DNA of 64,000 bases from Leptospiraceae bacterium (lineage in GTDB: Bacteria; Spirochaetota; Leptospiria; Leptospirales; Leptospiraceae), in NCBI GenBank assembly GCA_024233865.1, contig JACKPA010000012.1:128001-192000 (forward strand), written 5' to 3'. The position numbers were made by a program, and so were the translations under genes. The notes under the pieces are model-generated. The model was given only the letters and a program-made list of their open reading frames with translations, was not told the DNA's origin and made no database searches. Positions 23,271-49,261 of the stretch are shown here, one piece after another; position 1 is the first letter of the stretch; every line of letters starts with the position of its first letter.

Positions 23271-23882
23271 ATGGCTTATGGTAGTTTCAAAACATTGGAA
23301 GAAGTTCTACTTAAATTCGGTATTGAGAGTAAAACTGAAAAATTCCTAAATGAAACGAGTATAGAGATCGCTCAAGCAATATTTGATTTTATTATGGAAA
23401 AATTCTCTAACCGTAGAAATTTTCTTAGCGAGAATTCTATTTGTGAGACTATGATTTCCCCTATCTTGCATGTTGTAACAGAAAAGCATGGATTGCCTCT
23501 TTGGTCTCATGTTCGTTTTGAAGTTTCCGAACAAGAAGGTTTAACCGGTATTCCGGATTTTTTAATAGCTCCGGCATCAAAAATTGAAACAATCTTTACA
23601 ACTCCTGTTGTTTGCATAACTGAAGTTAAAAAAGAGAATTTTGATGAAGGTTGGACGCAAGGCTTATGTGAAATGATAGCGGCTCAACGTTTTAATGGTG
23701 AACCTCAAAAAATTATTTATGGTATTGCAACCTCTGGTAGTATCTGGCAATTTGCTAAACTCGTTGGTAAAAAGTTCATTCTTGATCCACGGATTTATTC
23801 GGCAACTGTCAATCTGCAACAGGTTCTAAATGTGATTAACTGGCTTCTTGGAGAGGCAAAAAAAGAATTACCCGAAAATTAG
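23271..23882 (+). CDS. PD-(D/E)xK nuclease-fold protein resembling the HsdR N-terminal domain (HSDR_N-like); paralog family member
   Basis: GIPDFLIAP...VCITEVKKENFDEGWTQGLCEMIAAQ...GIATSGSIWQF matches the D-x(n)-E-x-K ... Q...Y/M ... TNG..W.F pattern of standalone HsdR-N proteins. Four paralogs lie at 36.9-40.2 kb. Confidence 0.5.
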   Translation: MAYGSFKTLEEVLLKFGIESKTEKFLNETSIEIAQAIFDFIMEKFSNRRNFLSENSICETMISPILHVVTEKHGLPLWSHVRFEVSEQEGLTGIPDFLIAPASKIETIFTTPVVCITEVKKENFDEGWTQGLCEMIAAQRFNGEPQKIIYGIATSGSIWQFAKLVGKKFILDPRIYSATVNLQQVLNVINWLLGEAKKELPEN

Positions 23883-30262: not shown

Positions 30263-31384
30263 TTAGCTTTTTTTCAAAGTAAAGTAGAATGTACTACCCA
30301 TTTCGTTTTCGCTTTCTACCCAAATATGACCACCGTTTTTCTCTACAAACTCTTTACATAAAATAAGCCCAAGTCCCGTTCCTCTCTCATCATCTGTTCC
30401 TCTTGTTGAAAAGCCCTCTTCAATTTTGAAAAGCTTGCCTAAATTTTCTTGTGTTATTCCTATGCCCGTGTCTCTAACATAAAATAGGATTTCATCTTTT
30501 TCATAGGATTTACAACCTATGGCTATGGAACCGCCCTTTGGCGTAAATTTTATAGCATTAGACAGAAGGTTTCTAAATACGGTTTGAATCATTTCCCTAT
30601 CTGCTATTGCTTGGTGATTATCCGGGCATAGTATTTCATTTTGAATTGTAATCTGTTTTGCATCTGCTAAAGTGAATTTATGAAAAGTTGTAACATCATT
30701 GATGAGAGCTTTTATATCAAACGATGTTGGATTGAATGGAATTTTGTTTGTTTGTGATCTAGACCACGTTAAAAGGTTTTGTAACAAATTCAAGGTATGC
30801 TTGGAGCTATCGTAGATCATTCCAATAAATCGTTTATTTTCTTCCAGACTAAAAGTTTCCCCACTGTTTAGGAGCAATTCGGAAACACTAATCAGGGCAT
30901 TAAAAGGATTTTTGAGATCATGGGCAATAATGGAAAAAAATTTATCCTTTGTTGCATTGAGTGACTCGAGTTGTTCCATTTGGTTTTGAATAATTTCTTG
31001 AGAGCGTTTGAACTTTAGATGCGTATTCACTCGTTGAAGCAGTTCTATAGGATTGAAAGGCTTCACAACATAGTCAACACCTCCATATTCAAATCCTTTG
31101 ATTACGTCTTCGGTTTGGGAACGAGCTGTCAAAAAAATAATTGGTACATTTAGTGTTTTCGGGTTTTCTTTTAATTTTTTACATACTTCGTACCCGTCCA
31201 TTCCAGGCATGGAAATGTCCAATAAAATCAGGTCTATTTTTGCTTCGGATACGATTTTTAGAGCTTGTTTGCCATTGAGAGCAGCATAAGACTCAATGTT
31301 ATTTTCATTCAGAATATTTCCAACTATTTGTAGGTTTTCGGGAATATCATCAACAATAAGTACTGTAAAACTATCTTGCTCCAT
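30263..31384 (-). CDS. Hybrid sensor: N-terminal response-regulator receiver + HisKA + HATPase histidine kinase
   Basis: LIVDDIPEN...DLILLDISMPGMDGYE (REC), SIIAHDLKNP (H-box), GTGLGLILCKEFVEKNGG (G2 box). Confidence 0.8.
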   Translation of the reverse strand: MEQDSFTVLIVDDIPENLQIVGNILNENNIESYAALNGKQALKIVSEAKIDLILLDISMPGMDGYEVCKKLKENPKTLNVPIIFLTARSQTEDVIKGFEYGGVDYVVKPFNPIELLQRVNTHLKFKRSQEIIQNQMEQLESLNATKDKFFSIIAHDLKNPFNALISVSELLLNSGETFSLEENKRFIGMIYDSSKHTLNLLQNLLTWSRSQTNKIPFNPTSFDIKALINDVTTFHKFTLADAKQITIQNEILCPDNHQAIADREMIQTVFRNLLSNAIKFTPKGGSIAIGCKSYEKDEILFYVRDTGIGITQENLGKLFKIEEGFSTRGTDDERGTGLGLILCKEFVEKNGGHIWVESENEMGSTFYFTLKKS

Positions 31385-31396
31385 TTGCTTACCTTT

Positions 31397-33733
31397 TTAT
31401 TCGGATAATACTTCAATAATAACAGGAAATTCTTTTAATAGATTCACAATTTTTCGAATATCATAATTTTTGGAAGCAGTCTTTAATTGCTGTGAATAAT
31501 CAGTCAGTGGCGCGATTTTATATTTTCGTGCAATATCTCCTACCTCACTGGCAAATCCTCTAATTTCCGGCATGGAGATAAACGTTTCAACTTGTTTATG
31601 AGCAGGGAGTAAGGTTTTCAGCCTTTCTACGGATTCCCAAAGAATTTCTTTTGAAATGTTTGTTTTGAATTGATTCAAATTATTCAAAAGACTATTATGT
31701 TCCGCTTTATTTTGTGATTTTAAGCTATAAGGCAGATGCTTCATCAAAATATTTATCAAGTCTTTTTTGGAAACCGGTTTTTGCATAATTGTATCAAAGC
31801 ATTGGGGCATTATTTCTATTTTGGAAGACACCGTCTGAGCTATAATTGGTATGGATTTATATTTTGGATTTTCTTTTAATTTTTTTGCTGCTTCGTCTCC
31901 ATTCATTTGGGGCATATAGATGTCCATAATGATTAAATCAAGTTGATGCTGTTCAAACATTTCCAAAGCTTCGATTCCATTTGATGCCTCTAAGATTTCC
32001 AAATTGTATTTATGCAGATAAGCTTTGAATATGTTACGATTGCTTTGAATATCATCAACTATGAGAATTGTAGCATTTTCAAATTCGATTTCATTATAAG
32101 AAAGTGATATATCTTCTTTTGTCTCTGTCTGTTGTACGGAAATGTTTTTAAAGTGGACCGTAAATTCAGAACCGTTCCCCAAAGTGCTTTTCACCTCAAT
32201 ACTACCATTCAAGGCTTCAGCCAATCTTTTGCTAATGGATAAACCAAGACCTGTTCCACCATATTTTTTGATATTTTGACTTTCTCTCTGGCGAAACGGC
32301 TCGAATATAAGTGCAATTTCTTTGTCTTCTATGCCGATTCCACTATCCTTTACACAAACATCAAAGTTAATTCTACCTGATTCCGGTTCCAATTGCCAAT
32401 GTTCTATGGATACTTTGACATAACCTCTATCCGTAAATTTAATGGCATTGCCAATTAGGTTAAACAAAATTTGGCGTAACCTGGCTTCATCAATCAAAAC
32501 ACATTCGGGAAAATCGTGAGGTATTTCAATAGGGAATTCAATACTTTTTTGATTGGCATTCATAAAGAAAACTTGTTTGATTTCTGTGAGTAGAGACTTG
32601 ATATTTGTTGCAGACTCTCTTATTTGTAAACGCCCTGCTTCTATTTTGGAAAGATCAAGAATATCGTTTATCAAATTTAGTAAATTTTTTCCGCTATTGA
32701 GTATTCCTTCGAAATAGTCAGTATATTCAGGTTTATGAGATAGTTTATCTTTTAGAATTTCAGAAAAACCAAGAATAACGTTCATGGGAGTTCGGATTTC
32801 GTGGGATATATTGGCAATAAATTCCGACTTAACCAAGTTGGCTCTTTCTGCTTCTTCTTTGGCTGTAACGAGCTCTTGTTCTATTTGCTTGCGACCACTA
32901 ATATTACGATTGAATATGGCAATCCCGTCATCCATTGGTACGACTTGATGATAATACCAACCAACTGTTTGATTGGTAATAGCTGCCTGGAATTCTCCTT
33001 CTAATGGCATGCCGGTTTCACAAACTATTTTGTACTGTTCAAAAAAGCCTTGATTGTTTTCCATTGGGAATATTTCTAAGATGCTTTTTCCAATAGCTTC
33101 TTTTTGTGAGGACATTCCAATTTCTAAAACAGCATTGCCATTTAACTCCTCGATGATAAAGTCAATGATTTCATTGTTATCATTTTGCAGGTACTTTAAA
33201 AGGTAGATTGCATCCAAGTTGGACTCAATGGCTGTTTTAAATCGTTTTTCACTCTCTTTTAGAGCTTGTTGTACTTTTTTTTGCTCGGTTATATTTATTT
33301 TAACCGCCAGAAAATGAGCGATTTCTCCGTTATTACTTATGATTGGTGATATGGTCGCACTTTCCCAAAATGTTGTACCATCCTCGCGTTTGTTTAGAAA
33401 TTCACCCTGCCACGTTTTCCCTGATAAAATTGTTTCCCAAAGTTCTTTGTAGGTTTCTTTGGGAGTATGATTTGTTTTTAAGATTCGGTGATTTTTTCCT
33501 ACTACTTCTTCCAATTGATATCCGGTTAATTTTGTGAATTGAGGATTTACATATTCTATATTTCCGTATTTATCAGTTATCGATATACTGACTGGACTTT
33601 GTACAACCAAAGTAGAAAATTTTTGTAATTCTCGCTCCAGAAATGCTTGAGAACGCTTTAATTCTTTATTTTCAGCTTCGAGCTCTTCAATTTTATTGTG
33701 CAGCAATTCTTCTATATTTTCTGAACTTGACAT
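31397..33733 (-). CDS. PAS/PAC hybrid sensor histidine kinase with C-terminal receiver domain
   Basis: Coiled-coil, two PAS regions, [10 protein letters not shown] (H-box), [12 protein letters not shown] (G2), [11 protein letters not shown]...[16 protein letters not shown] (REC). Confidence 0.8.
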
Positions 33734-33800
33734 AAACGCTATAAACCAGTGTCATGGTGAGCTTGTCGAACCATGAATTTTTTAGTTAAACTTATAGTTA

Positions 33801-34961
33801 CTATTTTTTTGATTTCTTTAAAGTAAAGTAGAATTTGCTACCTTTACCGATAGTACTTTTTACACGAATTTTTCCTTTGTTTTTTGCCACAAATTCTTTA
33901 CATAGTATCAGTCCGAGTCCAGTACCTTTTTCATTTTCTGTTCCCAGTGTGGAATGGGTTTTTTCTATCTTGAACAGATTGCTTTGCCTTTCCGGTGAAA
34001 TGCCAACACCCGTATCACTGACGCTAAGGAGGATTTTGTCATTTTCTTTCTGTTTGCAAAAGATGGTAACCACTCCACCTTTGGGCGTAAATTTAATCGC
34101 ATTGGAAATTAAATTTCTAAGTACTGTTTGGATCATATCTTTGTCCGCAAACACTTTTAAGTCTTCTGATTTGATCCTTATTTTAAGCTCAATTTGTTTG
34201 GAAATTGCAGAGGTGGTTTGATAAAGCATGGTAACATCTTTGATTAGCCACTGTATATCAAAATCAATAGGAGTGTATGCAATCTTTTTAGATTGCAGCT
34301 TGGACCAAAGTAAAAGGTTTTCCAATAATACGTATGTTTGTTTACTGCTATTGTATAGAATATTTGCCCAATATTTTATTTTTTCCGGACTAAGTTCAGA
34401 ATGGTTGTCTATTAAAAAACTCGAAATATTTACCAAAGAAGTGAACGGGCTTTTGAGATCATGAGAGATAATGGAAAAAAATTTATCCTTGGTTGCATTT
34501 AATTTTTTTAAACGCTTTGCCAAAGCTCTATATTTTTCTTTGCTTTCCTTTAATAATTTTTCTGTTTGATAACGATCTTCTATATCATGAATTATGGAAC
34601 ATAAAACTTCTTTTTTACCTACAACCATTTTGGCGCTATATACTTCTACATGGCGAATATTTCCATTGGAAAGTCGATGCCTAAAAAAGAAATGGTTTCG
34701 TTTTTCATTTTTTGCATTTTGCATTTCTGCGAGTATTTCATTAGGTGTTAAAATATTGATTTGATTTATATTCAATTTTGTTATTTGATCTATGGAATAA
34801 CCATAGTATTTGCAAGCTGCTTGGTTGGCATCAACAATGAATCCGCTTTCCGGATCAATCAAAAGCATAACTGAAAAATTATCATAAAAAAGTGTTTTGT
34901 ACCTTTGTTCGCTTTCATCAAGTTGTTGAGCAATTTTTAGTTCGTTGTTTTGGATTTTCAT
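33801..34961 (-). CDS. PAS sensor histidine kinase
   Basis: PAS segment, SIISHDLKSP (H-box), GTGLGLILCKEFVAKNKG (G2). Confidence 0.8.
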   Translation of the reverse strand: MKIQNNELKIAQQLDESEQRYKTLFYDNFSVMLLIDPESGFIVDANQAACKYYGYSIDQITKLNINQINILTPNEILAEMQNAKNEKRNHFFFRHRLSNGNIRHVEVYSAKMVVGKKEVLCSIIHDIEDRYQTEKLLKESKEKYRALAKRLKKLNATKDKFFSIISHDLKSPFTSLVNISSFLIDNHSELSPEKIKYWANILYNSSKQTYVLLENLLLWSKLQSKKIAYTPIDFDIQWLIKDVTMLYQTTSAISKQIELKIRIKSEDLKVFADKDMIQTVLRNLISNAIKFTPKGGVVTIFCKQKENDKILLSVSDTGVGISPERQSNLFKIEKTHSTLGTENEKGTGLGLILCKEFVAKNKGKIRVKSTIGKGSKFYFTLKKSKK

Positions 34962-34999
34962 TTGGATCGCAAAAGAAAATTATTTAGATTTATTAGATA

Positions 35000-36727: not shown

Positions 36728-36923
36728 AGTTTATAATTCGGTAGTTTTTATTATGTACATCAGAAATTTTTTGCGTAAAAAAGCCAAGGAAATTCTTGCA
36801 TTTTTTTTGGGGTTTATGATCAAAAAAAATAAACGAGCTTTTTGGGGATTTCTTTTCTTGACATAGGGTAAAATTCTTTTATACCATTTGTATATGCTAA
36901 CCACTGAACAATGGAGGTTCGTA

Positions 36924-37564
36924 TGGCTTTTAGTAATTATAAAACCGTAGATGCTGTGCTTAAAGAGTTTCAAATTACCTATACCGAATCAAATTTTGTT
37001 ATAGAAACAGACTTTTCTATTTCGGACTATTTTCGAGAAGATTTGGAATTTATCAGAGAAGAAGGAGCACCCGAATGTTCGGAATATGCTATTTGTGAAA
37101 ACTTGATTTACCCACTATTAAAAGAAGTTTGGAAAAAATACTATAGTAAGTTTATGTTATGGAGCCACAAGTCACTCAATTATGATGAAAAATTATCAGG
37201 TTTTCCGGAGTATATTCTATCTAAACGTTCTCTGCTAGGAAAAATAGTCTTTGATCAGCCTTATTTTATGTTGGTAGAAGCAAAGCAAGATAATTTTGAA
37301 GTAGGGTGGGCACAATGTTTAGTTGAAATGTTTGCTGCCCAGAAATTAAATGAAAATCCGGATCAGGAGATATTTGGGATTACTTCCAATGGCTCTGTTT
37401 GGCAATTTGGAAAGTTAAAAGGTAGTCTTTTTACTAAAAATAAGAAATATTACTTACTAGATGATCTGAACAAGCTTTTGGGAGCGATTAATTATATATT
37501 TTTTCAGTGTGAAGTATTACTAGGTGGGGAAGAGAGGAGTGAACCTGAAAATGCTATGTGCTAG
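36924..37564 (+). CDS. HsdR-N-like PD-(D/E)xK protein, paralog 2
   Basis: GFPEYILSK...FMLVEAKQDNFEVGWAQCLVEMFAAQ...GITSNGSVWQF. Confidence 0.5.
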
Positions 37565-37580
37565 AATATTTAGGAGAATA

Positions 37581-38084
37581 ATGAAATTTATATTGATACC
37601 TGTATTATTGTTTTTATCATGTATAGGCATAGGATTTAAGGAGACCACGCCAGAACAACAACTTTTTCAAGCTACATCAGATGGTAATATAAAAAAAGCG
37701 AAACAACTTATATCAGAAGGAGCAAATATAAATGAGAGTCGAGCATTAATAGTTGCTTCATACAGAGGAAGAACAGAACTTGTCAACTTATTAATCAGTT
37801 ATGGAGCAGATGTAAATGTTAAATCTGATGTTTATGAGACTACGCCACTGTTTGCTGCGTCAGAACATGGTGGTAGAACAGATATTATGAAAATATTAAT
37901 CCAAGCTGGAGCTGACCCAAATTTCAAAGATCAATATGGACGAACACCTCTGTATTTTGCTTATAGGAGGAAAAATGCTGAAGAAATTAGAATATTAAAA
38001 CAAGCAGGTGCTAAAGAGCTTAATCTGAAGCAAACAAGAGATCAATGTAAATATTGTATTGGTTGCATGTGTCCTGTTGAATAA
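37581..38084 (+). CDS. Ankyrin-repeat lipoprotein
   Basis: LLFLSCIGI lipobox-like signal; three or four ankyrin repeats; RBS aggag upstream. Confidence 0.65.
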   Translation: MKFILIPVLLFLSCIGIGFKETTPEQQLFQATSDGNIKKAKQLISEGANINESRALIVASYRGRTELVNLLISYGADVNVKSDVYETTPLFAASEHGGRTDIMKILIQAGADPNFKDQYGRTPLYFAYRRKNAEEIRILKQAGAKELNLKQTRDQCKYCIGCMCPVE

Positions 38085-38191
38085 TTATCTCCGAACATAG
38101 TCGAATTGAATTTTAATGTTAAAAATCAATTGTGTTATGATGTATTGAAAAGGAGTAACAAGAAAATGCTTAATCTAGCAATCAAAAAATC

Positions 38192-38488
38192 ATGTATAAG
38201 TATACAACTGTTAGGGGTAATGAAAGTCAAATTAATATTATGAGAAATGATAGAATATACCAATCCATATTAAACCATTTAAGCCTAGTTCCGATTGATT
38301 ATTTACAAGAAGTAGATATTTATTTACGAAATCTTATTAAAATTCTTAAGAGGAAAGAACATAATAGGAAGATGATTTTGGAATTGGCAGGTTCTTGGAA
38401 TGATATGCAAGAAAAGGATTTTAATGAATTTTTATTTATTACTAAAAAAATAGGTAATGAGATGTTTAATCGAGATATAGAACTATGA
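38192..38488 (+). CDS. Putative antitoxin partner of the downstream PIN toxin
   Basis: Small ORF whose stop overlaps the PIN gene start (ATGA); no diagnostic motif. Confidence 0.35.
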   Translation: MYKYTTVRGNESQINIMRNDRIYQSILNHLSLVPIDYLQEVDIYLRNLIKILKRKEHNRKMILELAGSWNDMQEKDFNEFLFITKKIGNEMFNRDIEL

Positions 38489-38886
38489 AACAAGCTCTTA
38501 TAGATACAGACACACTTTCTTACTTTTTCCATAAGAACTCGGCAGTTGTCGAAAAACTAGATAAGTACTTAAAAGAATATGGTTTTATCAATATCAGTGT
38601 TGTTACATACTATGAGGTATTGAACGGTTTATATTTCAAAGATGCTAAAAATCAGTTAGTTAAATTTGAGCAGTTTGTTGAATTAAACGAGATTCTACCT
38701 TTGACGGACGAAATAGCTAAAAAATCAGCAGAAATTTATGCAGATTTGCGTAAGAAAGGGCAGACGATTGGACATAATGATACATTAATTGCAGGAACAG
38801 CCATTGTGAATGATATGACTTTAGTAACAAATAATACTAATCATTTTGGTAGAATAGAAGGCTTAGAAATTGATAATTGGGCATAA
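38485..38886 (+). CDS. vapC: PIN-domain toxin (VapC-like)
   Basis: LIDTDTLSYFF start and the conserved acidic-residue spacing of PIN domains; 133 aa. Confidence 0.7.
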   Translation: MKQALIDTDTLSYFFHKNSAVVEKLDKYLKEYGFINISVVTYYEVLNGLYFKDAKNQLVKFEQFVELNEILPLTDEIAKKSAEIYADLRKKGQTIGHNDTLIAGTAIVNDMTLVTNNTNHFGRIEGLEIDNWA

Positions 38887-38944
38887 CATTCTATTATCAA
38901 TTAGCATTGGTGTATGATTAGAATCAAAACTTTTTGAGAATAGT

Positions 38945-39592
38945 ATGAAAAACCAAAAATATAAAAAGCCAAAATCGTATTCGGATTTTACCATCCAAGA
39001 CTTACAAGATATGTTTGGTATCAAAGACAAAATAGATGCTCTAAACTTATGTAGAAAAGAAGTCGAACCAAGCGAATGGTTGTTGGCTACTTTTGCCAAA
39101 CACAAAGGCTTACCTATAGCTTCCGAAAAAGCCAAATCCGAAATGCTGATAACGCCGATACTTTTGGATATGCACGAAAGGCAACCAAGTGCATTTAGCT
39201 TTTTTTCGGGCTATACTTTTGAAGTTGATAAGAATCTGGCACTTACGGGAAGGTGTGATTATTTGATAACAAAGGAAATTCAAAGCACAAATATAGAAGC
39301 TCCCATAATAGGTATTTTTGAAGCAAAAGATGATAGCCTGGATAAGTGGTACGGACAGTGCGGAGCAGAAATGTACGCCGCAAGGCTTTTTAATGAAAGA
39401 CAAAAGGAAGATTATCCCGTCATTTTTGGAGCTGTTACAAACGGTTTTATATGGCAGTTTTTGAAATTGGAAAGAAATATCTTGCAGATAGACAGTGAAA
39501 CATTCGCCATCCAAAATCTACCCAAACTTTTGGGGGCATTGCAAAGTTTGATTGATTTTTATGGTAACAAAAACCAATTATCGGAAGGATAA
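38945..39592 (+). CDS. HsdR-N-like PD-(D/E)xK protein, paralog 3
   Basis: GRCDYLITK...IGIFEAKDDSLDKWYGQCGAEMYAAR...GAVTNGFIWQF. Confidence 0.5.
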   Translation: MKNQKYKKPKSYSDFTIQDLQDMFGIKDKIDALNLCRKEVEPSEWLLATFAKHKGLPIASEKAKSEMLITPILLDMHERQPSAFSFFSGYTFEVDKNLALTGRCDYLITKEIQSTNIEAPIIGIFEAKDDSLDKWYGQCGAEMYAARLFNERQKEDYPVIFGAVTNGFIWQFLKLERNILQIDSETFAIQNLPKLLGALQSLIDFYGNKNQLSEG

Positions 39593-39594
39593 AA

Positions 39595-40200
39595 ATGGCA
39601 TACGGAGATTTTACGGCAGTAGATTTAATAAAGAAGTTTGGAATAAAGTTTCGAGCGGAAAATTTATTCCAAGATGTGAAACCAATAGAGCCAACAGAAT
39701 GGTTAACTTCCGCTTTACGAAGAGCTACGGAACTGGGTTTTGGTAGTGAAAAATCACGCTCCGAAAGATTGGTGACACCTATTTTATTGGAGCTTAGTGA
39801 CTTTAACAACCATTCTTTTTCTGTTTACTCTGGTGTAAACTTAGACGTTGATGAGAATTTGGGGTTAAAAGGTGAATGTGATTTTATTTTCTCTTTTAGT
39901 AGAATACAAGATTTTGTAATGTCACCTATATTTTGTATCACAGAAGCCAAAAAGCAAGATTTGGAACAAGGTACAATACAAGCGTCAGCTCAACTGATAG
40001 GTGCAAAAAAATTAAATGAAATAGAAAATAATCCCATAGATATATTGTATGGCTGCTCTACAACCGGTATAGAATGGCGGTTTATTAAATATATTAATAA
40101 CGAGATGATTATAGACGAAACGCGATATTTGATAAGAGACTTAAGTAGTCTGTTAGGTGTTTTACAATATATCATTAATAGTGCAAAAAAATGGAATTAA
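39595..40200 (+). CDS. HsdR-N-like PD-(D/E)xK protein, paralog 4
   Basis: GECDFIFSF...FCITEAKKQDLEQG...GCSTTGIEWRF; starts 2 nt after paralog 3. Confidence 0.5.
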   Translation: MAYGDFTAVDLIKKFGIKFRAENLFQDVKPIEPTEWLTSALRRATELGFGSEKSRSERLVTPILLELSDFNNHSFSVYSGVNLDVDENLGLKGECDFIFSFSRIQDFVMSPIFCITEAKKQDLEQGTIQASAQLIGAKKLNEIENNPIDILYGCSTTGIEWRFIKYINNEMIIDETRYLIRDLSSLLGVLQYIINSAKKWN

Positions 40201-40204
40201 TGTG

Positions 40205-41260
40205 ATGGCTGATTTTATTCAAAAGAAAATGGAAACAAATGGTATTGTTGGTCTTGTCTGTGGAATTGTAAAAGACGGTGAGCTTGCTTGGAAAAAGGCG
40301 TATGGATATGCAGACTTGGAAAATGAAATAGAAGTGAAAACTGATACGATTTTTTTATTGGCTTCTGTTTCCAAAACGGTCACAGCAACCGCCGCTATGA
40401 TTCTCTATGAAAGGGGCGAAATCGATCTGGAAACGGATATTAACGAATATTTGCCATTTCAGGTTATTCATCCCAAGTATTCCGATATTCCGATTACTGC
40501 AAAAATGTTATTAACTCATACATCAAGTATAAGTGATTCTTCTTACAATGAATTAGAAGATTCGGTTTTGTATGTTCGGGAAGATGAAGAAATGGAATAT
40601 GATTTGGCATCCTTATTAGAAGAATATTTTACGGAAGATGGAGAATTTTACGATCCGGAACTTTGCTTTTCTGACAAAAAACCCGGAATCAAATACGATT
40701 ATTCCAATGTCGGAACCTCTCTTTTGGGTTATCTGGTAGAAGTTATTTCTGAGCAGTCGCTAGAAGACTTTTGTAAAGAGAATATTTTCAAGCCCTTAGG
40801 GATGAAAAATACTTCTTGGTTTTTGAAAAATTTGGATTTGGAAAAGGTCACCCTACCGTATTATGATTCGGAAAATACAAACGGACACTATGAAAGTCCT
40901 GATTATCCGGACGGAATGTTACGTTCCACAGTTGAAGATATGGCAAGGTTTTTAATTATGTTTATCCAAAATGGTGAATACAAAGGCAAACGTATTTTGC
41001 AGGAAAAAACTGCTGAACTCATGAAAGACACTCATTTTGAATACAAAGAAGAAGGGGAAACAAACAGAATCGGCTTGACTTGGTATTACTTGGATTATGG
41101 AGATGATGAAAGCTATCTAGGTCATGCTGGTAGCGAAGAAGGTGTAACAACTAGCATGTTTTATGAAGTAAATTCGGAAGTTGGAGTATTGGTATTTTGT
41201 AACACATCGAACGCAGAAATATCGGAAATCGAAGATTATCTTTTTCAGCTTGAGTTATAG
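40205..41260 (+). CDS. Serine hydrolase of the beta-lactamase / penicillin-binding-protein family
   Basis: LLASVSKTVTA (SxxK) and later Y..N region; ~350 aa. Confidence 0.7.
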   Translation: MADFIQKKMETNGIVGLVCGIVKDGELAWKKAYGYADLENEIEVKTDTIFLLASVSKTVTATAAMILYERGEIDLETDINEYLPFQVIHPKYSDIPITAKMLLTHTSSISDSSYNELEDSVLYVREDEEMEYDLASLLEEYFTEDGEFYDPELCFSDKKPGIKYDYSNVGTSLLGYLVEVISEQSLEDFCKENIFKPLGMKNTSWFLKNLDLEKVTLPYYDSENTNGHYESPDYPDGMLRSTVEDMARFLIMFIQNGEYKGKRILQEKTAELMKDTHFEYKEEGETNRIGLTWYYLDYGDDESYLGHAGSEEGVTTSMFYEVNSEVGVLVFCNTSNAEISEIEDYLFQLEL

Positions 41261-41543
41261 TTTAACTGGCTTGCTTCGCAGAACTTGTTTTCTTTGATTG
41301 TAGTTCGTAGCCATAAAAATTCCATATCTTGGCATTTTCTATCTTCTTCACCATATTTTTTTCCAAGAATCTTTTGGATATAATAAGCATCATCTTTGTC
41401 ATCCTCTAATTCACCTCTCAACAATGGGATTAGTTCTATGAAATATTGAATCAAGGAATCTTTATGTTCATCAATATATTTAACTCTTTCCTATTTTTGC
41501 CGATCAATAGGGAGCTTTTCGGCTAACCAAATGTTTTCATCTT

Positions 41544-41954
41544 TCATCGAAAGTTCTCTTTCTTAAGCCTTTCTAATTCTGATTTAAGTGGAAGTTTGAC
41601 TCCATAGTCATTCATTGCATATTTGATAAGACCTTCTTTAAGCATTATCGAAACTCTTTGTTTGGATACTCCTAAAACATCTGCTATCTCGTTAGAAGGA
41701 ACTAAATCCGAAAGTGTAACTGTAGACGACAGGTATTTAGCTTTATGGTAAGCCATTTCAGCTCGTATTTTGTTCATGGATATTTGTGTGAAAAATCCAT
41801 CTTTGCAATTATTACAGAAATATCCTTTTAGCCCAGCAACTTCAAAAGGTTTGATGTTTTTTGATTTGTAAGTACGTGAAATATCCTTATGGAAAACCAT
41901 ACTTCCTTTTGTTCCACATAGTGGACAGTCTATCCATTTTTTATCTTTTGCCAT
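41544..41954 (-). CDS. mqsA: MqsA-family antitoxin (zinc ribbon + HTH)
   Basis: CPLCG...CNNC zinc ribbon, then an XRE-type HTH (IADVLGVSKQRVSIML). Immediately downstream of the toxin gene, as in mqsRA. Confidence 0.65.
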   Translation of the reverse strand: MAKDKKWIDCPLCGTKGSMVFHKDISRTYKSKNIKPFEVAGLKGYFCNNCKDGFFTQISMNKIRAEMAYHKAKYLSSTVTLSDLVPSNEIADVLGVSKQRVSIMLKEGLIKYAMNDYGVKLPLKSELERLKKENFR

Positions 41955-41955
41955 T

Positions 41956-42264
41956 TTAAAACCTCCTTTTAAAACTTATAACAATCAATAATTTCCCTTC
42001 GTAAATTGTGATTTTTATGTAAGCTTCTACTCCTTTAACTAATTTTCTATACACATCCTGCCAGCCAGATTGCTGTTGCGATTTCATACTCTTATAAAAA
42101 TTGTTTTCTTTCAAAGTCTCGACTTCTTTCATTATCTCGTATTCTTCTAGTTCAAAATCGTCAAAAGCACTTTCTATGGCTGTATCTGTAATATTATAAT
42201 TCCCCTCCGATAAGAGTTTTCTAACTTTTTCTAATTTGTATTTTGGAGTATCCTTTTCTAGCAT
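41956..42264 (-). CDS. mqsR: MqsR-family toxin (putative mRNA interferase)
   Basis: 102 aa; toxin-first gene order with a 1-nt gap to the MqsA-like gene; KLEKVRKLL...YKSM... resembles MqsR. Confidence 0.55.
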   Translation of the reverse strand: MLEKDTPKYKLEKVRKLLSEGNYNITDTAIESAFDDFELEEYEIMKEVETLKENNFYKSMKSQQQSGWQDVYRKLVKGVEAYIKITIYEGKLLIVISFKRRF

Positions 42265-42516
42265 TTATATAGAATTAATTATTATATTGATTAAGTCAAT
42301 ATAATAAACTATCTTTACTAAAAATTTTCTCTTCTATATGCTCAGGAAGAAAAATTGTATTTTGTTACCCGTTTTTGAGAAAAAAAGAGTCCTTAAACAA
42401 GTAGAAAATGATCCAAATTGAGCAAATCTATAAATTGAATATTTCTATAAACGAGTATGATATATCTTGTTATGAAGATTTAGCAAATCATCTATTTGTA
42501 GAAGAGGAATATTAAA

Positions 42517-43182
42517 TCATCCCAAAGAACCTGTAATCATTTCTTGTAACCATCTACGTAAATTTCTCTCGGCTTCCATTTCGTCTATACCACAGGCTTC
42601 TATAAATTCATAAAGCTTATTTTTTTTTACCCAGATAGGAAAAGTGGGACTATTTTCTACTTCAATATATTTTCCATTACGCAACTGATAAATTCGTAGG
42701 ATTTCACCATTATAACGCCACAATTCAGGGACACCCATTGCTGAGTATATGCGGGGTTTGTCCATGTTAGTATGAGTAATATCTACTTCTACAACTATAT
42801 CAGGTGGAGGATCTGTTTTTAAGCTTACTTTCTTTCTGGCAACCTTGGGTTGATTTTGAATGTAATAGCACTTATCAGGTTCGGCACTTTTTTCCAGTTC
42901 GGAATAGCTGAGAGTTGTAGAACCCATTGTTTTGATTTTTAGCCCTAACTCAAATATTAAATTGCGGATAAAAATACCTATTAATTCTGCGTATCTTTCA
43001 TGTTCTTCTGGAGGCATAGTAATTTCTAAAGTACCGCTGTCATAGGTTATTCTGGTAGCACGATTGTCTCCCAAATCCAATACTATTTTTTCATACCTTT
43101 TCCAAGTAATATTGTATAATATTTTACGTTCTTCAGCAGGTATGATGGCAATTTTTGGTTCAAGGGTTGTTGCTACTGTCAA
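42517..43182 (-). CDS. Uma2-family (DUF820) endonuclease
   Basis: PPDIVVEVDIT...K... and GVPELWRY are Uma2 PD-(D/E)xK hallmarks. Confidence 0.65.
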   Translation of the reverse strand: MTVATTLEPKIAIIPAEERKILYNITWKRYEKIVLDLGDNRATRITYDSGTLEITMPPEEHERYAELIGIFIRNLIFELGLKIKTMGSTTLSYSELEKSAEPDKCYYIQNQPKVARKKVSLKTDPPPDIVVEVDITHTNMDKPRIYSAMGVPELWRYNGEILRIYQLRNGKYIEVENSPTFPIWVKKNKLYEFIEACGIDEMEAERNLRRWLQEMITGSLG

Positions 43183-43387
43183 GTTATTTTCTCCGGAAAC
43201 CAGCGTTGCTTTAATTATAGAGATTTCCGAATGAGATATGTCAACAAAATTAAAAAGTTCATGGAATAATCAACCGAATTTGGTTCTTAAACAAGCAGAA
43301 AATTTTTATTGCTACCATTTTATACCAGAATTAGTATGTTTTCAAGAGTTACCTAAAATAATTTGGTTAGGTTAAAATTAAATTTAT

Positions 43388-43597
43388 GTGCTAAAAAATA
43401 TAAGGAAAGTTATGGCATACAATACGTTTACTAATGAAAAAATAATCGAGCAATTCGGATTAACAGTTGTTACTACCGGTTTGGAGTGGAGATTTCTGCA
43501 ACTCGCTGGTAATATTTTATATATACAGCACAAATCTTATGAATTGGAGAACCTCGAAACCATTCTTGGGGTTCTTTATAAAATGGTTACGGAGTAA
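43388..43597 (+). pseudogene. Internally deleted derivative of the HsdR-N-like paralog family (N-terminal MAYNTFT + C-terminal GLEWRF...LETILGVL only)
   Basis: The 69-aa ORF retains only the conserved N- and C-terminal blocks of the paralogs; the catalytic core is absent. Confidence 0.4.
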
Positions 43598-47085: not shown

Positions 47086-48015
47086 ATGAAAAAGCTAGGA
47101 CTATTATTTTCAGTTTTAGCGCTGACATTAACGATGTCAGCCACAGGAATTTCGGCAGGAGCATTAAGCGGTCAATGCTACGTTTTGGTCCATGGAATAT
47201 TGGGCTTTGATGATACAAACGGACTTGCAAATGGTCTTGTTAAATATTGGGGTGGATTAGACGGATACCTCAGAGGTCAAGGAGCTAAAGTTGCTACACC
47301 AGGAAGTTCGGCTGCCAATGACTTGGCTACAAGAGCAGGTCAGATTAAGAGCTTTTTGGAAGGAACTTCAAGCAATCCAGGCTGGAGAATTACCAATGGT
47401 TGTGCTAAAGTGCATCTAATTGGTCACTCTCAAGGTGGTCTAGTTTCCCGATATTTGGTAAAAAACCTAAGTTATTCAAGCAAAGTTGCTTCCGTAACTT
47501 CGGTAAATACTCCTCATAAAGGAAGCCCTGTTGCTGATGTTGTTTTGGCTGTGATTCCTAGTTGGTTGCAACCGTTTGTGAATGTTGTTCTTAGCACATT
47601 TGCAACAATAATGTATCGTGATGGTCGTCCGCAAGACGTAGTTGCAATGGGAAAATCGTTAACGGTTTCGTATTGTAACACTTTTAATTCCAGTACACCA
47701 AACGTGTCTGGAATTAGCTATTACTCTTATGGATCAACAATGGCTTGGGCTGACCTAATCCAACATCCACTTATGGGTATTACCTACCCTGCAACATGGG
47801 CAGGTGGATTGGCTTATGGACAAGGTTCTGCAAATGATGGTATTGTTCCTGAATCTTCCCAAAAGTGGGGAACATGGAAAGGTGGACCAAGCACATATTG
47901 GTATGCCACAGGGATAGATCATTTAGAAGCAACCAATTTTGAGTGGTGGGGACAAAACTACTACGATGTTAATGGCTATTACTTAAAAATAGCTAAAAAC
48001 GCTGCAGGTCTGTAG
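47086..48015 (+). CDS. Secreted triacylglycerol lipase (alpha/beta hydrolase, bacterial lipase family I-like), copy A
   Basis: Signal peptide, YVLVHGILGF (oxyanion), IGHSQGG (GxSxG), 309 aa. Confidence 0.7.
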   Translation: MKKLGLLFSVLALTLTMSATGISAGALSGQCYVLVHGILGFDDTNGLANGLVKYWGGLDGYLRGQGAKVATPGSSAANDLATRAGQIKSFLEGTSSNPGWRITNGCAKVHLIGHSQGGLVSRYLVKNLSYSSKVASVTSVNTPHKGSPVADVVLAVIPSWLQPFVNVVLSTFATIMYRDGRPQDVVAMGKSLTVSYCNTFNSSTPNVSGISYYSYGSTMAWADLIQHPLMGITYPATWAGGLAYGQGSANDGIVPESSQKWGTWKGGPSTYWYATGIDHLEATNFEWWGQNYYDVNGYYLKIAKNAAGL

Positions 48016-48331: not shown

Positions 48332-49261
48332 ATGAAAAAGCTAGGACTATTATTTTCAGTTTTAGCGCTGACATTAACGATGTCAGCCACAGGAATTTCG
48401 GCAGGAGCATTAAGCGGTCAATGCTACGTTTTGGTCCATGGAATATTGGGCTTTGATGATACACACGGACTCGCAGGTGGTCTTGTTAAATATTGGGGCG
48501 GATTAGACGGATACCTCAGAGGTCAAGGAGCTAAAGTTGCTACACCAGGAAGTTCGGCTGCCAATGACTTGGCTACTAGAGCAGGTCAGATTAAGAGCTT
48601 TTTGGAAGGAACTTCAAGCAATCCAGGCTGGAGAATTACCAATGGTTGTGCTAAAGTGCATCTAATTGGTCACTCTCAAGGTGGTCTTGTTTCCCGATAT
48701 TTGGTAAAAAACCTAAGTTATTCAAGCAAAGTTGCTTCCGTAACTTCGGTGAATACGCCTCATGTAGGAAGTCCTGTTGCTGATGTTGTTTTGGGTGTTA
48801 TTCCTAGTTGGTTGCAACCATTTGTGAATGTTGTTCTTAGCACATTTGCAACAATAATGTATCGTGATGGTCGTCCGCAAGACGTAGTTGCAATGGGAAA
48901 ATCGTTAACGGTTTCCTATTGTAAAGCTTTTAATAAGAGTGCACCAAATGTATCCGGACTTAAATACTACTCTTACGGATCAAATATGGCTTGGGCTGAC
49001 CTAATCCAACATCCACTTATGGGTCTTACCTACCCTGCAACATGGGCAGGTGGATTGTTTTACGGACAAGGTTCGGCAAATGATGGTATCGTTCCATTGT
49101 CTTCCCAAAAATGGGGAACATGGAAAGGTGGACCAAGCACATATTGGTATGCCACAGGGATAGATCATTTAGAAGCAACCAATTTTGAGTGGTGGGGACA
49201 AAACTACTACGATGTTAATGGCTATTACTTAAAAATAGCTAAAAACGCTGCAGGTCTGTAG
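48332..49261 (+). CDS. Secreted triacylglycerol lipase, copy B (tandem duplicate)
   Basis: 309 aa, >90% identical to copy A, including ~190 bp of upstream sequence. Confidence 0.7.
   Translation: MKKLGLLFSVLALTLTMSATGISAGALSGQCYVLVHGILGFDDTHGLAGGLVKYWGGLDGYLRGQGAKVATPGSSAANDLATRAGQIKSFLEGTSSNPGWRITNGCAKVHLIGHSQGGLVSRYLVKNLSYSSKVASVTSVNTPHVGSPVADVVLGVIPSWLQPFVNVVLSTFATIMYRDGRPQDVVAMGKSLTVSYCKAFNKSAPNVSGLKYYSYGSNMAWADLIQHPLMGLTYPATWAGGLFYGQGSANDGIVPLSSQKWGTWKGGPSTYWYATGIDHLEATNFEWWGQNYYDVNGYYLKIAKNAAGL

Follow-up and report, generated by a model that had tools for sequence, protein, structure and literature searches.

Standalone restriction-fold PD-(D/E)xK proteins of a Leptospiraceae bacterium belong to a large, conserved family of predicted nucleases with one branch in type III-D CRISPR-Cas operons

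Introduction

Among small standalone proteins of the PD-(D/E)xK class, a described counterpart in behavior to the genes considered here is Uma2 (COG4636, PF05685), a likely solo toxin that occurs mostly in cassettes of paralogous genes (Makarova et al., PMC2701414). A related fold is present in the nuclease domains of the type I restriction subunit HsdR and of type IIG-IIL enzymes (BpuSI, DrdV, MmeI-like), which are joined to or accompanied by helicase, methyltransferase or specificity modules. Enterobacteria carry the Rpn (YhgA-like) nucleases, standalone PD-(D/E)xK proteins of about 300 amino acids with several dispersed paralogs per genome. A further relative by fold, the cyclic triadenylate (cA3)-activated nuclease NucC, serves both cyclic-oligonucleotide-based antiphage signaling systems (CBASS) and type III systems of the CRISPR-Cas class (PMC11229360). 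Here we analyze a set of paralogous genes in a 64,000-nucleotide stretch of the genome of a Leptospiraceae bacterium (contig JACKPA010000012.1), referred to throughout as the window, that encode standalone proteins of about 200 amino acids with a predicted restriction-enzyme fold.

The family to which these proteins belong is already captured by a CRISPR-accessory profile, PDLC01472 ('PD_DExK'), which is filed in PADLOC-DB as 'CAS-I..VI associated' and for which we found no published function; its behavior is analogous to that of Uma2. The cluster described as 'PD-DExK, possible nuclease' by Shah et al. (2018) may be the same family. The original prediction for this DNA, made from the letters alone, had called the function of the genes undescribed, in agreement with the literature searched, in which we found no experimental study of the family. 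What is new here are the members themselves and an operon in which different subfamilies are mixed.

Results

The window encodes four intact paralogs and one remnant

Five open reading frames (ORFs) of the window belong to the family:

36923-37564, + strand: paralog A, 213 amino acids, A-type subfamily; its ATG lies one base before the start first assigned (36924)
38945-39592, + strand: paralog B, 215 amino acids, B-type subfamily
39595-40200, + strand: paralog C, 201 amino acids, C-type subfamily
23271-23882, + strand: paralog D, 203 amino acids, D-type subfamily; the sequence used for the structure model
43412-43597, + strand: remnant E, 61 amino acids from the methionine at 43412; the ORF opens at a GTG at 43388 (69 codons, 43388-43597)

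The original prediction had described four intact paralogs that share a series of conserved blocks, two of them separated by 2 nucleotides (nt), together with one deletion derivative, and apart from the one-base shift in the start of A the ORFs lie where they had been placed. The ORF coordinates put 2 nt between B and C. Although A, B, C and D are only 26-37% identical to one another, each full-length protein holds the listed blocks: an N-terminal AY/AF-x-x-F and FGI/FQI, S-E-x4-E, (D/E)-[FY]-[LI]-[ILF], E-[AV]-K, Q...E/Q-[ML] and [TS]-x-G-x-x-W-x-F. A family profile recovers all five ORFs with E values from 3.6e-104 to 5e-11, and the similarity among them is far above chance. The derivative, remnant E, aligns to C only in two pieces (C residues 1-17 and 156-194), its N-terminal residues 1-17 being joined to about 45 C-terminal residues of a C-like copy. 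This two-piece alignment shows an in-frame internal deletion in which the catalytic core was lost, and remnant E, for which the methionine at 43412 is a more likely start than the GTG at 43388, is probably a pseudogene. It is also kept in a sister strain (GCA_020440835.1; 99.5% identical over 18 kb).

The paralogs are predicted restriction-fold nucleases with intact catalytic residues

In sequence searches, PDLC01472 matches A-D along positions 2-145 of its 146, with E values between 1e-39 and 1e-45, and remnant E with 7e-10. Against Pfam, NCBIfam and PHROGs, A-D gave no significant match; HSDR_N (PF04313) and HSDR_N_2 (PF13588) returned nothing at E<=1, and the Uma2 profile PF05685, which does match a separate gene of the window at 42517-43182, likewise failed to match A-D. 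Two relatives alone gave sub-threshold matches to PDDEXK_12 (E 5e-4 to 1e-3), and a profile search of the Protein Data Bank sequences found nothing.

Structure prediction and motif conservation place the proteins more precisely. The AlphaFold2 model of D has a mean confidence score (pLDDT) of 91, and that of A, which is less confident at 73.5, follows the same order of helices and strands; the modeled core has the alpha-beta-beta-beta-alpha-beta topology of the PD-(D/E)xK fold. When the D model was compared with known structures, the best full-length matches were the mitoribosomal proteins mL37 (13.0) and mS30 (12.9), followed by the nuclease domains of the type IIG enzyme BpuSI (12.8) and of DrdV (11.8), an HsdR fragment (10.6), the Uma2-like TT1808 (8.5), NucC (7.9) and many other restriction-fold nucleases below these; Foldseek was concordant, with DrdV as the top match. 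mL37 and mS30 (mL65) are eukaryotic ribosomal proteins of about 370-390 residues with 6% identity and are not known nucleases; the match shows a common fold and not a common function. In a 50-sequence alignment, E54, E59, P64, E118, K120, Q130, G156, W159 and F161 (D numbering) are invariant and D96 nearly so, which gives the strand-2 acidic residue and strand-3 ExK (E118, K120) of a PD-(D/E)xK motif. All four intact paralogs carry these conserved residues, A having a glutamate at the D96 position (PEY, followed by ExK and Q), and the equivalent active-site residues are invariant in 36 A-type sequences.

Taken together, the models and motifs identify the window proteins as predicted members of a restriction-fold PD-(D/E)xK family with catalytic residues intact. 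The earlier reading of the paralogs as HsdR-N-like nucleases is thus supported by structure and motifs, including a structural likeness to the HsdR N-terminal nuclease domain, whereas membership in the two Pfam HSDR_N families is not. Nor do the genes resemble type I restriction subunits in architecture, with no fused superfamily 2 helicase and no hsdM or hsdS in the window region; among the loci collected, it is only at L094, as it happens, that family genes come after a type I system. A derivation of the genes as degraded hsdR fragments was ruled out, the form of about 200 amino acids being a conserved unit under purifying selection.

A-type relatives are frequently embedded in type III-D effector operons

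A metagenome scan yielded 79 A-type loci, and such genes often lie next to or within cyanobacterial type III-D effector operons. Where an A-type gene is flanked by at least 4 kb on both sides, type III cas genes lie within 3 kb in 14 of 34 cases, and 11 A-type genes have cas genes on both sides; these counts are lower bounds, cas genes having been detected by phmmer with the proteins of two reference loci only. The well-flanked genes form 24 clusters at 90% identity, so the association does not stem from one clone.

Individual loci show how closely the genes are integrated. At two Microcoleus loci, a pair of A-type genes lies just after a Card1-Cas10-RAMP-Csx19 module. The loci beyond the 34 metagenome genes at which A-type genes accompany cas genes are L097, L098 and L178. 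In locus L146 (744-13823) the order is Cas10, RAMP, RAMP, a 149-amino-acid ORF, Csm6, RAMP, A-type gene, RAMP, a 176-amino-acid ORF and RAMP, the A-type gene starting 3 nt after the stop of the preceding RAMP gene; the Cas10 of this operon has a GGDD motif and no detected HD domain. Csm6 too is inserted between RAMP genes here, and a Ser/Thr protein kinase gene lies upstream of the operon. Locus L178 belongs to plasmid pMIC7113.03 of the cultured strain Allocoleopsis franciscana PCC 7113 (NC_019740.1), which carries a type III-D locus with cas10, csx10, cas6, cas1 and cas2; in it, csx7 is separated from the RAMP gene that follows by two tandem A-type genes (L178 10001-11269; WP_015186230.1 and WP_015186229.1), both annotated 'hypothetical protein'. 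A TnsA-like gene is found upstream of cas10 on the same plasmid.

This association is confined to the A-type. In the 1.43 Mb of loci examined, the window included, we found no CRISPR arrays, and no cas homologs were detected in L001-L096 or in the window, roughly 97 loci with B-, C-, D- and G5-type relatives being covered. An association of the whole family with CRISPR was therefore rejected.

Paralogs recurrently form cassettes, and A, B and C appear to share an operon

The family has a recurrent habit of forming cassettes. Poribacteria, Saprospiraceae, Hymenobacter and cyanobacteria all have arrays of 2-5 paralogs. Locus L059 has five copies, L066 four, L045 three and many others a pair, and positions within arrays are orthologous between genomes. 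The A-type pairs, for example, are two co-retained orthologous lineages, 84-99% identical within and 73-78% between lineages. In the Poribacteria arrays (L059 7982-11225, L066 8089-10603, L045 1-1626), the 3-5 paralogs are separated by tiny gaps or overlaps, and corresponding positions are 85-96% identical between genomes. Outside this organism, each array is drawn from a single subfamily, and no second array in the sample mixes subfamilies as A-B-C does.

In the window, A and B are separated by a block that is specific to the strain and lies outside the nuclease family:

37524-38944, + strand: strain-specific block, 1421 base pairs (bp) at the A-B junction, with the ankyrin lipoprotein and VapBC genes
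37524-38084, + strand: ankyrin-repeat lipoprotein gene; repeats read from the translation
38192-38488, + strand: VapB-like gene, 98 amino acids, overlapping the PIN/VapC gene by 4 nt; no Pfam match
38485-38886, + strand: PIN/VapC gene (PIN, E 5e-15)

In the sister strain this block is absent and 11 bp stand in its place; A ends there in ...EVLLEDKQ, its stop codon overlaps the ATG of B by 4 nt, and A-B-C are contiguous. No target-site duplication is visible at the block junctions. The sequence comparison suggests that A-B-C form, or ancestrally formed, one tight operon of three ancient subfamilies. The earlier description of the nuclease genes as interleaved with toxin-antitoxin (TA) modules does not hold up, for the ankyrin and VapBC genes constitute a strain-specific indel that the sister strain lacks, which makes the interleaving incidental. 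For annotation, the neighboring TA modules at this locus should not be taken for functional partners. Of the sigma-70-like sites in the region, the best is found at a distance of 35 nt upstream of A:

36858-36887, + strand: putative sigma-70-like promoter, TTGACA-18-TACCAT, 10 of 12 matches

Sites of this kind are no more numerous in the region than expected from shuffled sequence, and it is at most a possible promoter of the operon.

The subfamilies are large, old and under purifying selection

A profile search of 1.84 billion representatives recovered at least 3166 clusters (50% identity) under a cutoff of E<=1e-3 and, with the stricter E<=1e-30, 480. With few exceptions the members are standalone proteins of about 200 amino acids; among the 150 best representatives, almost all have about 190-300 amino acids (range 173-339), and those scanned for further domains had none. 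N-terminal extensions of 60-95 amino acids in some relatives contain no recognizable domain and have no Pfam match, and they were set aside as informative extra domains; in P0130, P0140, P0150, P0176 and others, a helical extension of 60-70 amino acids carries the pattern L-x-L-x3-E-x3-LL-x-LL...Q-x-YF. Members occur in Bacteroidota, cyanobacteria, Poribacteria, some Acidobacteriota and one Leptospiraceae lineage, at 1 to at least 9 copies per genome. Decayed copies exist as well, namely remnant E and split ORFs at L009, L049 and L057. No significant match was found among the BFVD viral structures and no relatives by two pattern scans of 2.9 million IMG/VR viral contigs; members are carried by 17-20 of 72,556 plasmids, these being cyanobacterial.

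Each window paralog has its nearest relatives elsewhere. For A these are cyanobacterial proteins at 65-80% identity (over 36 sequences, the mean column identity is 81%), and for B they are proteins of Bacteroidota at 50-77%. The protein-database matches of C in Bacteroidota and Acidobacteriota show 64-81% identity to it, and the C-type genes of these phyla sampled in genome contigs show 50-81%, in a sample that the search patterns skewed toward C-type and G5. For D, other contigs of this organism hold at least four more copies at 64-69% identity. The identity of C to a low-GC Bacteroidota homolog (81%) exceeds that between many of the Bacteroidota copies themselves, which suggests horizontal transfer; the GC content of C-type genes follows that of the host, from 0.29 to 0.66. 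Whole-gene dN/dS estimates (NG86) between orthologs are 0.05-0.2 in every subfamily tested, and dS between D-type copies is saturated.

These comparisons indicate that A, B, C and D did not diversify locally: each comes from an ancient subfamily of its own, and purifying selection acts on these subfamilies. The original prediction had proposed a specificity-diversified system; subfamilies that are 50-81% identical across phyla, with such dN/dS values and saturated D-type divergence, contradict a rapidly diversifying specificity set, and both local diversification and positive selection were ruled out.

Gene neighborhoods of the other subfamilies are mostly housekeeping

Each of the four D-type copies outside the window stands alone among housekeeping genes (thiD and a chemotaxis operon; purL; fliG and glpK; NUDIX and RmuC genes), and D itself sits between a FadL-type gene and an ABC transporter. 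Flanks of 200-240 bp from five D-type copies, from upstream of A and from downstream of C hold nothing in common beyond the start-codon region and no terminal repeats; a mobile element bounded by terminal repeats or by conserved ends was accordingly rejected. The 76-79 loci with C-type and G5 genes elsewhere also lie among housekeeping genes. The B-type contexts are mixed, with one gene among TA modules, one after a type I restriction-modification (RM) system and one among housekeeping genes. At L094 (1909-10884), a type I RM system with HsdR and a fused HsdM/S is followed by Uma2, B-type, Uma2, Uma2 and B-type genes, so that two unrelated small restriction-fold families are gathered at one spot.

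No partner gene emerged. When all ORFs within 6 kb were clustered across 80-81 loci of species-representative genomes, no non-family neighbor recurred beyond the IcmF and ABC-F genes of Hymenobacter, a synteny at the level of the genus, and a conserved partner was rejected; within Hymenobacter, sequence clusters follow the synteny classes. Pfam scans of 155 immediately flanking genes returned a housekeeping mixture with no enrichment of defense genes, and no adjacent small antitoxin of the kind found in type II TA modules recurred in the 81 loci or the 155 flanking genes. Three loci labeled 'MAG: Janthinobacterium lividum' (L010, L020, L060) show the same synteny of icmF with a family gene as the sampled Hymenobacter loci; the family genes of L010 and L060 cluster with Hymenobacter orthologs, and all three contigs may be mis-binned.

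In the window region, TA modules and Uma2 are present, a part of them within the strain-specific insertion. The neighbors named in the original prediction (VapBC-like, mqsRA, Uma2, ankyrin and beta-lactamase-like genes) were found as described, MqsA lying below the Pfam cutoff and a beta-lactamase-family gene (PF00144) beginning 4 nt past the stop of C:

41544-41954, - strand: mqsA-like gene (MqsA, E 2.5e-5, below the Pfam cutoff)
41956-42264, - strand: mqsR (MqsR, E 1e-21)
42517-43182, - strand: Uma2-family PD-(D/E)xK gene (PF05685, E 6e-22)

A defense-island make-up is nonetheless not supported as a property of the family. Defense genes are not enriched near C-type, G5 or D-type members and have a mixed presence near B-type members; a defense link stands for the A-type, and it comes from type III CRISPR-Cas rather than from TA neighbors. 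The outcome that the original prediction had set against itself, a lineage-wide housekeeping set, is partly borne out by the housekeeping contexts and the Hymenobacter synteny.

Two further sets of neighboring genes lie elsewhere in the window. Tandem 309-amino-acid Abhydrolase_1/lipase genes (47086-48015 and 48332-49261), followed by a lipase-chaperone gene, have in common a 300-nt stretch of 96% identity at a spacing of 1246 bp, and the sister strain has one copy. Three consecutive PAS/HisKA/HATPase sensor kinase genes occupy 30266-34979 (- strand), the first and third having a stretch of about 690 nt in common at 65% DNA identity.

Discussion

The reading that we prefer, to which we give about an even chance, is that the window holds five members, four of them intact, of a large family of standalone PD-(D/E)xK endonucleases of about 200 amino acids engaged in conflict or defense, one lineage of which, the A-type, has been recruited by type III-D systems. 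Each protein would dimerize and act as a metal-dependent endonuclease on nucleic acid, with DNA as the most probable substrate, and tandem paralogs could pair as heterodimers in the manner of restriction-fold nucleases. By analogy, the family would form part of a pool of conflict and defense nucleases acting like the Uma2 'solo' cassettes, from which type III-D systems, where an HD domain is usually missing from Cas10, may have drawn the A-type lineage as an accessory nuclease. In this genome A-D would act with no cas genes adjacent.

Several observations weigh against this reading. Dimer or heterodimer formation and a DNA substrate are deduced from the fold, and the literature searched yields no biochemical or genetic data on any member. 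B-, C-, D- and G5-type genes lack cas genes in about 97 loci and show no enrichment of defense genes among their immediate neighbors, while the Hymenobacter orthologs are vertically inherited at fixed positions beside icmF or an ABC-F gene. A cross-phylum identity of 65-81%, together with low dN/dS, is unusual for defense genes. The genes have no methyltransferase, antitoxin or sensor domain with them, so that this reading offers no account of self-protection or of the trigger. The absence of relatives from viral contigs and phage protein sets is neutral for a defense role and argues against phage-borne mobility.

The same observations shape the main rival explanation, by which B-, C- and D-type genes encode housekeeping enzymes of nucleic acids, such as structure-specific nucleases of DNA repair or recombination or nucleases of RNA processing, that form a stable set of paralogs, and only the A-type was borrowed, at a later time, by CRISPR systems. 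Neighbors such as IcmF, ABC-F, DnaK, RecJ, aminoacyl-tRNA synthetases, purL, thiD and fliG, orthologous groups that track synteny across Hymenobacter species, host-adapted GC content, and very high cross-phylum identity under strong purifying selection all speak for such a role, and the full-length match to mL37 and mS30 indicates that the fold can serve RNA-associated roles other than nuclease activity. We nevertheless regard a housekeeping role as doubtful, given a patchy, lineage-dependent distribution, a copy number that ranges from one to at least nine per genome, the decayed copies, the placement of some members beside TA modules, Uma2 or type I RM genes, and the sign of horizontal transfer in C.

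Two other models are less likely. The genes could be selfish solo toxins or homing-type nucleases that are maintained through addiction, or that cut empty sites and copy themselves to intergenic positions, with cassettes as products of their spread; the D-type copies at five unrelated intergenic sites of one genome, the parallel with Uma2, itself proposed to be a solo toxin (PMC2701414), and the co-accumulation with TA modules fit this picture. The D-type copies are old, however, as their saturated dS and 64-69% amino acid identity attest, nothing is conserved outside the coding sequence, orthologs occupy the same locus across a genus, viral contigs hold no relatives and plasmids few, and no partner antitoxin exists, so that we consider a selfish origin quite improbable. 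We think it very unlikely that the proteins are NucC-like effectors, free of CARF or SAVED domains, that are switched on by a cyclic-oligonucleotide or SAM-AMP-type messenger from Cas10 or another cyclase. Such a mechanism would suit A-type genes in operons whose Cas10 keeps the GGDD cyclase motif, and NucC offers a precedent in serving CBASS as well as type III systems (PMC11229360); yet the structural likeness to NucC is lower than that to HsdR and type IIG nuclease domains and no sequence relationship to it is detectable, these operons already have sensors of their own in Csm6 or Card1, and most members, including all of those in the window, have no cyclase nearby.

Returning to the conflict and defense reading, one can imagine an extended form of it, which we hold to be unlikely: the family would be a pool of nuclease modules on the chromosome, in which paralogous subunits function together as hetero-oligomers with no need of a CARF or SAVED sensor, methyltransferase or antitoxin, one branch having become a DNase of type III-D systems encoded between cas7 genes, and A-B-C being a free-standing three-subunit version with a trigger of its own.

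The family has both common and differing features when compared with described systems. All five window ORFs match PDLC01472, and its presumed CRISPR context is seen in the A-type relatives, whereas the window itself and the B-, C-, D- and G5-type loci are devoid of cas genes and arrays. With Uma2 the family has the cassette habit in common, and the two co-occur at L094, L097, L085 and on Planktothrix plasmids; the window paralogs differ in carrying a distinct N-terminal extension of 50 residues and the C-terminal T-x-G-x-x-W-x-F hairpin, and their family is much more conserved across phyla. HsdR and the type IIG-IIL enzymes resemble it in fold, while the window proteins are standalone, with no helicase, methyltransferase or specificity module in the protein or conserved alongside. 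The Rpn nucleases, which no search matched, are a different family and provide an analogy in behavior only.

This large and strongly conserved family is absent from both Pfam and NCBIfam. Its solo and tandem members raise the question of what a restriction-type nuclease does, and how it remains harmless, with no methylase, antitoxin or sensor, a question that has been pending for Uma2 since 2005-2009. Few genes are inserted time and again among the cas7 genes of type III-D operons, and the A-type branch is one of them. Because an HD domain is found in only 3% of III-D Cas10 proteins (PMC11229360), such operons almost never possess this source of DNA cleavage; the A-type branch is therefore a concrete candidate for a missing DNA-cleaving activity.

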